From an uncultured virus (IMG/VR IMGVR_UViG_2061766007_001503) (Duplodnaviria; Heunggongvirae; Uroviricota; Caudoviricetes), in the IMG/VR virus record IMGVR_UViG_2061766007_001503: a stretch of 64,000 nt of DNA; one strand, 5' to 3'. Positions 12,716 to 32,396 of this stretch are shown in pieces. The position numbers and the translations under genes were made by a program. Positions within the stretch are counted from its first letter, which is position 1, and every line of letters starts with the position of its first letter. The notes below the pieces were generated by a model. The model saw only the letters and a program-made list of their open reading frames with translations. It ran no database searches and had not been told where the DNA came from.

Positions 12716-12731
12716 ATTGATTACTCTTGTT

Positions 12732-12803
12732 CAGGCGATAAAGGATTTGAACCTTTGTTTCTCCGATCTTCCTCGAAGCGTTCTACCACTAAACTAATCG
12801 CAA
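12732..12803 (-). tRNA. Degenerate tRNA-like gene (GAA in an abnormal anticodon loop)
   Basis: Good D arm (GTTT-AGTGGTA-GAAC) and T arm (AAAGG-TTCAAAT-CCTTT); anticodon loop AGGAAGAT lacks U33; acceptor end mismatched. Confidence 0.5.
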
Positions 12804-12893
12804 GGAGCATCTCCGCACAGTAATGTTAGTAGACCGCGGGGCTTCATTCCCACCTGTCATATCCTGTTAATTCAGGCATTACTCCGGTTGAAA

Positions 12894-15283: not shown

Positions 15284-15347
15284 AGGATTGCTTTAGTCTC
15301 ACGCTCGTACAATCCTGCCGATATACCTATCGGACGCCGCCGCATCT
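15284..15347 (-). ncRNA. tRNA-leader RNA motif, copy 1
   Basis: AGATGCGGCGGCGT, hairpin, then AGGATTG-TAC...CAATCCT ending 4 nt before tRNA-Arg. Confidence 0.5.
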
Positions 15348-15597
15348 TATTATTTTTCATCTGCCCTTTTGCGGGGAGCAGGCGCCTGCGTTAAAGTCAT
15401 GAGGCTGCGACTATTGGGGCGTTCTCCTTGCAACTCAAACATTTACCACAGGATTCGTACCCGTCACCCCTTATAATTGATAGATTTTCGGCAGACGCTC
15501 AACCCTGTCTATCTCAGGACCACCCAGCATCTTCATACCCCGCCCGAGCATCTTTTGAGTATGACGCTCGTGTTAGCCGCCATCTGCCTAGCCTTTC

Positions 15598-15824
15598 GAC
15601 TTGTTAGTATTTTATTTTGGAAAGGGAATCTAACCTAACCCCTTTTCGTTTGCAAACTAGCTTACTTCATTTCGAGGCTTCAGGCGACCACCTCAGGTAG
15701 CAACATAGCTTAATTAGACCTACCGCATTTTCTTGGCATCTTTTTGCCCTTCTCGTTGGCGGGTGAGGAAAGATAATGCTCTGCAATCTCCCTTACGGTT
15801 AGCTCTGAGACACGCTAACAAGTC
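15598..15824 (-). ncRNA. Candidate structured ncRNA of about 230 nt
   Basis: Perfect 10-bp long-range stem GACTTGTTAG/CTAACAAGTC inside about 600 nt of ORF-free DNA between tRNAs. Confidence 0.4.
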
Positions 15825-15889
15825 ACTGGTCTGTTCCTATTCAACTCCAGCATCAAGTCACTCTAACGCTTTATTTGCCTTAGAGAACG

Positions 15890-16704
15890 CGGGAAGACAG
15901 GGACTTGAACCCCGATACTACGGTTAATGGATAAATGAGTACTGACCTCAAATCTTTGACCATTCTTCATTAGTGTAATTATTAATATCTGTCTTTTTTC
16001 GAGGAAGATGTTCTGCGTCACACCATTTACGAATTGCATTATCTGTCACACCATATCGTGATGCAATTTGAGTAAAAGACATTGTTCTAATTAATTGTTT
16101 TAGTTCCTCACGAGAAGGTCTTTCAGCCTTTCTAGTAGCTTGTCTATGGCATTCTTCACATAATCCTGTTATTGTTTTACCACTTAATTGTTTACCACAA
16201 TTATTACAATAATATATTGTTTTTTCTAAAAGTTTTTCTTTTTCTTCTCTTAATTGATTTGCAATATCTTCATTATAATTTTGTTTTTCCCACAATTCTT
16301 CTTCAGAATAAAGATTGTTATGTATTTCTCTATGACAATTAGCACATACTAAAACACATTTCTTTATTTCTGCTAAATCCTTTTCCAAATCATGGCAAGT
16401 TCCATTTTGAGATATAGCATAATCTTTTTCTTCAGGATTAATATGATGAAATTCTAATGCATCAGGAATTTTATCATATCCGCATAAACAACATCTACTT
16501 CCTAAAACTTTAATTAAATTTTGCTTTCTTCTTCTTCTAAAATTACTAACATCTAAAGCAGATCCCATAGTTAAAAACTCCTTTCTTTTTCTTACTATAC
16601 TTAAGTTTTTAACTATTTTAATTAATCACTAATGTCCTATGTTCAATATTTTCTTTAAACTATTATCCCACAGCCGCATGTCCTAACCATTGGACGATCA
16701 ACCC
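15890..16704 (-). tRNA. tRNA-Asn(GTT) split in the anticodon: exon 1 16671-16704, exon 2 15890-15927, 743-nt insert
   Basis: Joined halves give GGGTTGA-TC-GTCC-AATGGTTA-GGAC-A-TGCGG-CT-G|TT-AA-CCGTA-GTAT-CGGGG-TTCAAGT-CCCTG-TCTTCCC-G. Confidence 0.85.
15948..16568 (-). CDS. HNH endonuclease with zinc finger and C-terminal HTH, encoded inside tRNA-Asn
   Basis: CCLCGY...LEFHHINP...VCANCHREIH; CNNC...CEEC; SFTQIASRYGVTDNAIRKW. Confidence 0.85.
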   Translation of the reverse strand: MGSALDVSNFRRRRKQNLIKVLGSRCCLCGYDKIPDALEFHHINPEEKDYAISQNGTCHDLEKDLAEIKKCVLVCANCHREIHNNLYSEEELWEKQNYNEDIANQLREEKEKLLEKTIYYCNNCGKQLSGKTITGLCEECHRQATRKAERPSREELKQLIRTMSFTQIASRYGVTDNAIRKWCDAEHLPRKKTDINNYTNEEWSKI

Positions 16705-16849
16705 AAAATTATAACCAACAGTACAAGCCATCATCTTGCCAAATGCGGCATCCACCCCTCGGAAGCAGTGAGCGTAGCTGATGAGGCTACGGCTTCCAAC
16801 CACTGCTTGCGGATTCGAACCACTACACTACATTCCTGCTAATTATAAG

Positions 16850-16923
16850 CGATGACAGAGGGACTTGAACCCTCGACCTCTAGCGTGACAGGCTAGCGTT
16901 CTAACCAACTGAACTATGCCACC
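16850..16923 (-). tRNA. tRNA-Asp(GTC)
   Basis: CTAGC-CT-GTC-AC-GCTAG; canonical arms. Confidence 0.93.
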
Positions 16924-16927
16924 AATG

Positions 16928-16984
16928 GGTGCGATTTTGATACCGGTGTACGCACCGCCCCTTATGGGGGACACCGCCGCATCT
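16928..16984 (-). ncRNA. tRNA-leader RNA motif, copy 2
   Basis: AGATGCGGCGGTGT, hairpin, then GGTGCG-TAC...CGCACC ending 4 nt before tRNA-Asp. Confidence 0.5.
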
Positions 16985-17103
16985 CTTATTTATACTCTCT
17001 CAGCGTGGGGAGTAAGAGGGGCTTCCTTCAGGAAACTTGAGCATTGCCGAGCCCTCAGCTGGTGCCAGCCAACTCCCGAGTTTGAGCGTCCTCAAAAGTG
17101 AGC

Positions 17104-18168: not shown

Positions 18169-18267
18169 AGGAATTCTAATTTCTTTTTCGCCATTATAAA
18201 GAAAAGAACCTTCAAATGTTTCTAAAAGTTTAGTATAAAAAATCTTNNNNNNNNNNNNNNNNNNNNN

Positions 18268-19153
18268 NTCCTTTATAAATATATTGACTTGTTTCTAATA
18301 ATAAATCTTCAATTTTAATATCGTTTAAATGTGTGTATGGTATACGAATAAGTGGAATATTATTTTTTATACACCAATTATTTTTAATTTCATCATTCTT
18401 TTGATTTTCTTGTAATTGTTTTTCTCCACCAAAATATTNNNNNNNNNNNNNNNNATTGATTATTAATATAAAAATCAAATCTATACATTGAATTAGTAAT
18501 TGGTGACCTACAACTATCAAAAGATTTTTCTTTTTCATATAAAATATTATTATCTTTTAATAATTGTTCAATTAATAATTCCCCTCTTGATTGGTGAGAG
18601 CACCCGCAAGAAAGCGTTCTATTTTGAGTCAATGAGTTAATATCAACTTCACATTCATTACCACAATCACATATACACTTNNNNNNNNNNNNNNNNNNNN
18701 NNNNNNNNNNNNTAATTTACCAAAACGCTGTCCTGTAATATCAAATTTTTGTGCAGCACGAATATTATTTATTTCTGATAACAAACATCCACAAGAAGTG
18801 GTATGACCACTCCTTAAATTACTTCCAAATACAGAAACTATATTTCCACAATCACATTGGCATTTCCATTTTGCAAGGCCCGTGTTTGAAGAACCATCTC
18901 TTTCTAAAACTAATAATCTACCAAATTTTTGTCCTACTAAATCTAGGCATTGTTTTTTTGCAGCTTCTATTCTTAAGCAGCCACAAGATCGAGTTTCTCC
19001 ATTTCGTAATTTTGAACCAATAACAATTGTAGTGTTTCCACAGTCACATTTACATAACCAATAAGCATTTTTTTGAGATCCTTTTTTTGAATAATCTCTT
19101 TGTAAAACTGTTAATTTACCATATTTATTTCCTGTTTCATCAATTGCGCCCAT
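18268..19153 (-). CDS. Homing-type endonuclease: repeated CxCDCG zinc modules plus C-terminal DUF559/Vsr-like nuclease (broken by N-gaps)
   Basis: GKLTVLQRD...WLCKCDCGN repeats; SRGELLIEQLL...YRFDFYI...NDEIKNNWCIKNNIPLIRIPY. Confidence 0.7.
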
Positions 19154-31751: not shown

Positions 31752-32318
31752 TTATTTGGCTAAAATTGCTTCAAAAATTGAATTTAAACCTTCATAACCA
31801 TAAATTTCAATTAATTTTTGATAATTTTGGTTTAATTTTGCAAAATTTTCATCTCTATTTATACAATTTTGTCTTTGAGTAACCCAACGTAAGTTATTTA
31901 ATCTATTATCTGATTTAATTCCATTAATATGATCAGCGACCATTGTGTCATCATTATCAATTGGACAAAAAGTTTCCAATACCATACGATTTACACGATA
32001 ATATTTTGTAGGTGTTTGTGTTTGGTCTGTTACCATAATATAACCATTGGTTGTTTTACCACCCACAATTCTACCTTCTTTAGTTTTTACTCTTCCTTTA
32101 TCAGAAACTAAATAACGAGTGTTTTTTGGATATTCTCGCCATTGTTCATCTTTTTCAGTAACATCTGATATTATTTGAAAATAAGTACTTCCTTTTTTAA
32201 AGGCTTTTTCAATAATAACACCTCTATTTTTAGCATAAATAATTTGTTTTTCTATGCCACCTTCAGAAGTATTCCACCCGTATTTTTCTTTTAATTGATT
32301 AAATGTAAAATATTCCAT
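31752..32318 (-). CDS. NUMOD4/HNH homing endonuclease
   Basis: EQWREYP...YLVSDKGRVK; YRVNRMVLETF...ADHINGIKSDNRLNNLRWVT...N. Confidence 0.85.
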   Translation of the reverse strand: MEYFTFNQLKEKYGWNTSEGGIEKQIIYAKNRGVIIEKAFKKGSTYFQIISDVTEKDEQWREYPKNTRYLVSDKGRVKTKEGRIVGGKTTNGYIMVTDQTQTPTKYYRVNRMVLETFCPIDNDDTMVADHINGIKSDNRLNNLRWVTQRQNCINRDENFAKLNQNYQKLIEIYGYEGLNSIFEAILAK

Positions 32319-32396
32319 AATTTTATTACCTCCGTTATTATATACAAAAATAAGGGCAATCTTTTTTATCAAGATTGCCCAAAAAACAAAGGTTTT

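Follow-up and report, generated by a model that had tools for sequence, protein, structure and literature searches.

Group I introns carrying homing endonucleases occur in the anticodon loops of bacterial tRNA genes, and one paper is said to deal with introns at position 35/36 of tRNA-Asn in Patescibacteria. Archaeal BHB introns are removed by a nuclease and a ligase, have paired termini, and can hold a homing endonuclease ORF. In phages, Devoto et al. (2019) remarked of a tRNA-Thr intron of the Lak phages that it 'itself may encode a tRNA'; in the part of that paper concerned with them the Lak tRNA introns are called enigmatic, no mechanism is given, and three of the four types have no Rfam hit (PMC6784885). 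As read here, the 3' end of each Lak intron listed there is made up of a T arm, then an acceptor strand, then a single discriminator base.

Here we describe a 743-nt insert in a tRNA-Asn gene of an uncultured virus (IMGVR_UViG_2061766007_001503), analysed within a stretch of 64,000 nucleotides that is called the window below. Like the Lak introns it is placed in the anticodon loop of a phage tRNA, whereas the Lak inserts, as listed, have a leader of about 30 nt and no ORF, and the window insert is flush at both ends and has a nuclease gene within it. A second parallel is with mascRNA and menRNA, which are also anticodon-independent tRNA mimics within a longer RNA; in the parts of the sources that treat them, mascRNA is excised by RNase P and RNase Z together (PMC4919922, PMC10424219). 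By analogy, the insert would resemble a mascRNA-type processing signal in the role of an intron, although mascRNA and menRNA, as treated there, are eukaryotic, their flanks are not rejoined and no mobile nuclease is involved. The phage T4 tRNA cluster likewise contains an endonuclease gene, that of SegB, and many of the HNH relatives described below are equally free-standing; however, SegB is a GIY-YIG enzyme, its gene lies between tRNA genes and it recognises a T-loop motif, according to part of PMC2330249, whereas the window HNH gene is inside a tRNA gene. With the bacterial group I introns the insert shares the tRNA-Asn site, a related HNH domain and the gain and loss of the endonuclease, but it lacks both the ribozyme core and the terminal G, and has a tRNA frame instead. 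With the archaeal BHB introns it has in common the terminal pairing, the internal ORF and, as predicted here, splicing by nuclease and ligase. It differs in that it has no BHB, its signal is wholly intronic, and the predicted chemistry is 3'-OH/5'-phosphate rather than cyclic phosphate/5'-OH.

The split tRNA-Asn gene and the frame of its insert

The window belongs to a tailed phage, with genes for terminase, portal, tail fibres and a sigma factor, and the sequencing runs that contain it are bovine and sheep gut metagenomes. There are 15 intact tRNA genes on its minus strand; none decodes Asn, and CCA is encoded by 0/15.

Excision of exactly 743 nt restores a tRNA-Asn(GUU), and ARAGORN in intron mode likewise calls Asn with a 743-nt intron, in agreement with the earlier note, which had joined the two halves into a complete tRNA. 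There are two possible registers for the excision, 15928-16670 or 15927-16669. The insertion had earlier been placed between G34 and U35, and is moved here to 35/36. This is the only one of four registers with a tRNA frame at the insert ends (score 15, against 9-11 for the others), and the only one in which the ends of the frame are the ends of the excision. A score of 15 was reached by 24 of 113,796 random 743-nt stretches of the window. With the site at 35/36, the analogy with colicin E5, which cuts at 34/35, is no longer needed. The coordinates are given in Table 1.

Table 1. Features of the split tRNA-Asn gene in the window, and of the corresponding gene in phage phiM12
Feature	Position	Strand	Remark
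5' exon of tRNA-Asn(GUU), G1 to U35	16670..16704	-	U35 directly 5' of predicted RNase P cut
tRNA-shaped intron, 743 nt, anticodon position 35/36	15927..16669	-	
Inner acceptor stem 5' strand, then U8 A9	16663..16669	-	G1.A72 mismatch common to CCA-less Asn relatives
Inner D-arm-like hairpin	16641..16660	-	loop without GG
14-bp hairpin extending into HNH start codon	16567..16616	-	predicted limit on translation
HNH endonuclease gene, 206 aa	15948..16568	-	stop codon inside inner T stem
Inner T arm	15935..15951	-	4/5 pairs, 7-nt loop
Inner acceptor 3' strand and discriminator U73	15927..15934	-	without CCA
3' exon, U36 to discriminator G73	15890..15926	-	CCA not encoded
phiM12 split tRNA-Asn	L429:2496-2615		antisense HNH gene adjoins

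The insert has the order of a tRNA, namely a 7-nt acceptor strand, U8, A9, a D arm, the HNH gene, a T arm, the second acceptor strand and finally the discriminator, with the gene occupying the place of the inner anticodon arm. This nested tRNA-like architecture is established. No complete decoding tRNA was found inside the window insert by ARAGORN or Rfam, its anticodon arm being absent, and the weak points of the window copy are a non-canonical inner T loop and an inner D loop that lacks GG. The AT-rich flanks around the ORF are short, as had been noted, but they turn out to be the D-arm, T-arm and acceptor elements. Similarly, the complementarity of the insert ends is real but represents the inner acceptor stem, not an extension of the anticodon stem of the archaeal type, and as a nested acceptor stem it implicates specific enzymes, of the RNase P and RNase Z types. 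The 14-bp hairpin is overlapped by a weak sigma-70-like site (16621-16594), although such sites were no commoner than chance in our scan.

The 3' junction is bridged by contigs from one study and the 5' junction by contigs from a second, independent one, in each case with more than 31 nt on either side, which excludes an assembly artefact. There are DNA contigs with a joint that skips exactly 743 nt; their sides are shorter than 30 nt with 85% likeness, making this a weak result, and the joint may derive from the tRNA-Asn of another organism. No joint at the tRNA-Asn site appears in four metatranscriptome assemblies, whose data are contigs only, leave the exons uncovered and are weak either way, and one RNA assembly has contigs on the interior of the ORF, which shows neither transcription nor splicing. 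A 19-nt 5'-exon probe matched no viral contig.

In the rebuilt tRNA-Asn, two U.U mismatches interrupt the acceptor stem, which pairs at 5/7 positions and is the weakest outer stem among the 26 elements described below, so that the window copy, even if spliced, may yield a poor tRNA. The outer acceptor stem at L095 is also mismatched, and in both genes the halves look as if they came from different alleles, which is possibly a footprint of homing co-conversion.

Several other features of the window were observed. Immediately after the tRNA-Asn gene, a stretch of about 600 nt (15285-15885, minus strand) contains no ORF-like gene; it has partial relatives of 85-99% likeness in contigs from four RNA libraries, no Rfam match, and a folding z of only -0.98; this is possibly a large non-coding RNA of the tRNA cluster. 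A tRNA-like gene at 12731-12804 (minus strand) has an 8-nt anticodon loop, is called '???' by ARAGORN and scores 39 bits with Rfam. Two further HNH-type endonuclease genes lie at 18230-19153 and 31752-32372 (minus strand), the first of them interrupted by runs of N.

The earlier observation that an HNH ORF fills most of the insert was confirmed, with a PHROGs HNH match at E 6e-22; Pfam gave no match above its cut-off. The protein consists of a Cys-zinc HNH domain, a zinc ribbon and a C-terminal helix-turn-helix, and in 62 sequences H41, H42, N77, H79 and four Cys are invariant. Its structure is predicted with a pLDDT of 90.6, and the top Foldseek matches are HNH nucleases, none of them at E<=0.001.

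There are 1,077 homologs at E<=0.001, which occur in three contexts: free-standing in phage tRNA clusters, in group I introns, and in tRNA-shaped inserts. The free-standing relatives have tRNA-Asn(GUU) at 38 of 124 adjacent positions, compared with 56 of the 658 tRNAs in those loci. In a quick version of the protein tree, 5 changes account for the nested copies, where shuffling gives 15.3, and the Asn-type and Lys-type nucleases are mostly in separate clades. The homologs in group I introns are short and lie at tRNA-Asn 35/36 in bacterial genomes, many of which are labelled Patescibacteria. The annotation of the homologs from Raoultella Ro1 and Bacillus SDFMU_Pbc contains no split tRNA. L178, L181, L185, L032, L223, L230, L249 and about 55 similar loci are group I introns at tRNA-Asn 35/36.

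A family of tRNA-shaped inserts in phage tRNA genes

Loci were gathered from viral, metagenome and genome scans, together with motif scans that were independent of the ORF. A scan for split tRNAs that made no assumption about the frame yielded 341 distinct candidates, in which the frame score is bimodal, most scoring 5-13 and 34 of them 15-17. From 31 rows, five were dropped, namely two register duplicates (L277 GCC, L377 CCA), one of uncertain register (L026) and two of Lak type in a chance register (L125, L161), leaving 26 distinct elements; additional members of the family were seen beyond these. The elements are 44-906 nt long and occur in tRNAs for Asn, Lys, Gly, Thr, Ile, Arg and Gln, inserted at 34/35, 35/36 or 36/37.

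The inner acceptor strands of the 26 elements pair at 97.8% of positions, compared with 43-58% when one strand is slid, these percentages being inflated and not independent, because pairing counted towards the score by which the elements were chosen, and because many of them are relatives of one another. At acceptor positions 2-7 there are 3-6 pair types per position, that is, compensatory changes. Four inserts without an ORF (L262, L276, L252 and L277) are matched by the Rfam tRNA model from their first base, and the 44-46-nt versions consist of an acceptor stem and a T arm only, as minihelices. A stop triplet in the T stem is found in 22/26 elements. L305 is a deletion derivative, in which the last codons of the ORF remain and the frame is perfect, and in two inserts, with TAG read as Gln, a GIY-YIG gene takes the place of HNH. 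The G1.A72 mismatch and U73 of the window insert are retained in Asn relatives that lack both ORF and CCA, and are therefore traits of the subfamily and not signs of decay.

The Lak-type inserts differ in being flush with the frame at the 3' end only, as in L125:2698-2839 against L003:2803-2877. By comparison with an uninterrupted allele, the L125 insert is in tRNA-Asn at 35/36. Table S6 of Devoto et al. lists an insert much like it for a gene designated Tyr, an assignment that may have to be checked again.

Members of the family also occur in cultured phages. A 46-nt minihelix interrupts tRNA-Asn in the Sinorhizobium phages phiM12, phiM7 and phiM19, where the gene is annotated as a pseudo-tRNA in phiM12 and as Thr in phiM7. 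The uninterrupted homolog in Ochrobactrum phage ORM_20 is a tRNA-Asn, which fixes both the Asn identity and the 35/36 position for phiM12. No intact tRNA-Asn was found in phiM12 among 8 ARAGORN calls around 11 Rfam tRNA matches. An intronless allele in a related phage, as the earlier note had envisaged, is thus available for phiM12 but not for the gut and rumen elements, for which no close uninterrupted allele was found among the loci examined (best 78-83% identity); the L262 element has no match in a cultured phage.

A 161-kb TAG-recoding phage (G004, comprising L111 and L114) has four inserts, in Asn, Lys, Gly and Glu tRNAs, three of them with nuclease genes. The RNAs ROOL, RAGATH-33 and cow-rumen-3 were seen in the same tRNA clusters (L105:5249-5852, L121:1730-1841, L025:1709-1835 and L101:5269-5414).

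Proposed excision and ligation, and competing explanations

Cleavage by RNase P generates a 3'-OH on the fragment before the cut, and cleavage by RNase Z a 5'-phosphate on the fragment after it; ends of this kind are joined by ATP-dependent ligases of the Rnl1/Rnl2 type and not by RtcB. In the route that we propose, RNase P would free the 5' end of the insert and a nuclease of the RNase Z type its 3' end. Exon 1 would then end in a 3'-OH and exon 2 begin with a 5'-phosphate, and a phage ATP-dependent RNA ligase would seal them to give tRNA-Asn. Where a co-infecting phage has an uninterrupted tRNA-Asn gene, the HNH enzyme would cut it and so spread the intron by homing. We regard it as somewhat likely that the tRNA-shaped HNH intron is excised and joined in this way. 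The earlier suggestion of a nuclease plus a ligase stands as the best reading.

E. coli RNase P accepts an acceptor plus T-stem hairpin as a minimal substrate and favours U at -1, according to part of PMC4919922. In the window insert this hairpin has 6/7 acceptor pairs, 4/5 T-stem pairs and a 7-nt loop, and a U stands 5' of the junction in 24/26 elements, matching the U(-1) preference. U at the 5' splice site is also a group I trait (here U35), and RNase P predicts the same. At the 3' end, RNase Z cleaves precursors that lack CCA just 3' of the discriminator (PMC10424219, in part); for a cut after CCA, the sole example in the sources used is the Thermotoga tRNase Z (PMC1540738, in part). In the same sense, CCA-tailed inserts lie in outer genes that encode CCA in 18/20 cases and one-base-tailed inserts in 0/6. 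In the window subfamily both insert ends fall exactly on the canonical cut sites.

RNA-ligase-like genes were found in 16/18 carrier records, including 9/9 of those at least 90% complete, the two records without one being 17% and 19% complete, and in 5/5 further carriers; phiM12 has both an Rnl1-like and an Rnl2-like gene. These genes are not diagnostic, since they also occur in 16/24 comparison phages, and many of the matches are below curated cut-offs. Of the two kinds of ligase named in the earlier note, those found in the carriers are Rnl-like, with RtcB in 0/18. The window itself, which includes 2,289 N, has no RNA ligase among its 63 ORFs. A search of 17 records for a phage RNase P RNA gave no match, which implies the host enzyme, and only 1/17 has an RNase Z-fold match.

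The 3' tails vary, being 1 nt, 2 nt (L097, L101), NCCA, or 4 nt without CCA (phiM12). A strict RNase Z rule accounts for neither the 2-nt tails nor the phiM12 tail, so there is no single rule for the 3' end, and the Lak-type 5' junction, with about 30 nt of leader before the frame, goes beyond what RNase P could do alone. Tails of 1, 2 and 4 nt and the Lak leader are more than fixed RNase P and RNase Z rules allow, and speak for a variant in which the insert is still spliced by way of its tRNA shape, but a phage nuclease makes one or both cuts, or exonucleases trim after RNase P until a 7-nt loop is ligated. We consider this variant rather doubtful: the ends in the window subfamily sit exactly on canonical sites, and the scarcity of RNase P RNA and RNase Z-like genes in the phage records also counts against it. 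Taken together, the two routes that depend on the tRNA shape make splicing quite probable.

It is also conceivable, but unlikely, that the gene is never spliced. Phage tRNAs are often dispensable, and in this case the tRNA-Asn would be dead and the frame would serve only to free the nuclease mRNA from the cluster transcript, or as a decoy RNA. The RNA contigs without a junction and the two U.U mismatches of the window copy are consistent with this. On the other hand, the exons rebuild normal tRNAs, with a median ARAGORN score of 116.6 for 29 rebuilt tRNAs (which were score-filtered) against 114.0 for 162 intact ones, the outer acceptor stem pairs 7/7 in 24/26 elements, and the frames stay intact where there is no ORF to release. 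The dead insertion raised as an option in the earlier note is thus weakened for the family, in which both exons and frames remain intact after loss of the nuclease gene, but is possible for the window copy with its outer acceptor stem of 5/7 pairs. A further explanation, that the nuclease broke a tRNA gene and supplied a working tRNA of its own, is rated as very improbable. The inner frame cannot decode, since the place of its anticodon arm is taken by an ORF or left empty. In addition, six phage records examined over their whole length contain nine split tRNAs, and no intact copy with the same anticodon was found for any of them, which also favours splicing.

The remaining candidates are a degenerate group I intron and an archaeal-type BHB intron. 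Distant HNH-domain homologs do lie in group I introns, at tRNA-Asn 35/36, with an RF00028 match in 7/7 tested, but intron models matched 0/13 and 0/18 phage loci, and 0/26 elements end in G (the window insert ends in U, as had been seen earlier), against 61/61 of the group I type, whose frame scores are 11 or less. The full BHB is present in 0/26. An Rfam search over 15700-17000 gave no match to a group I core (RF00028) even at E<=10, with the positive control found in 7/7, nor to a group II intron, in line with the earlier exclusion of group I and group II introns; for group II, there was no Rfam match to domain V/VI with conserved termini in the window or in 18 phage loci. For the BHB 3-4-3 motif, which had earlier been described as not evident in canonical form, the best central helix in the window insert has 3/4 pairs and no outer helix. 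An intron of either known type is highly unlikely here.

Implications for phage tRNA genes

No description of a tRNA-shaped intron class was found in the literature searched, with subscription papers and bioRxiv supplements mostly outside the search; the main text of PMC7162821 does not contain the word 'intron'. On balance, we favour the view that these inserts are a new class of intron, in which tRNA mimics parasitise tRNA maturation in gut, rumen and rhizobial phages by means of RNase P, a 3' nuclease and a phage RNA-repair ligase, and which HNH and GIY-YIG genes invade and abandon. As a speculation, such introns could have originated when RNA repair mis-ligated a mature tRNA into an anticodon loop cut by an anticodon nuclease, which would account both for ends that are flush and for how often Lys(UUU) and Asn are affected.

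If spliced as predicted, the insert would follow an undescribed route beside those of group I, group II, BHB/tRNA and spliceosomal introns, built from near-universal bacterial enzymes and one ligase. The presence of the element in a cultured phage makes the question directly testable. If the proposal is true, the 'enigmatic' Lak tRNA introns would be explained, annotations of phage tRNAs would be corrected (the pseudo-tRNA of phiM12 and the Thr of phiM7), and a 44-nt splicing cassette that is independent of its exons could become available for RNA engineering. Phage RNA ligases would also gain a role beyond repair.
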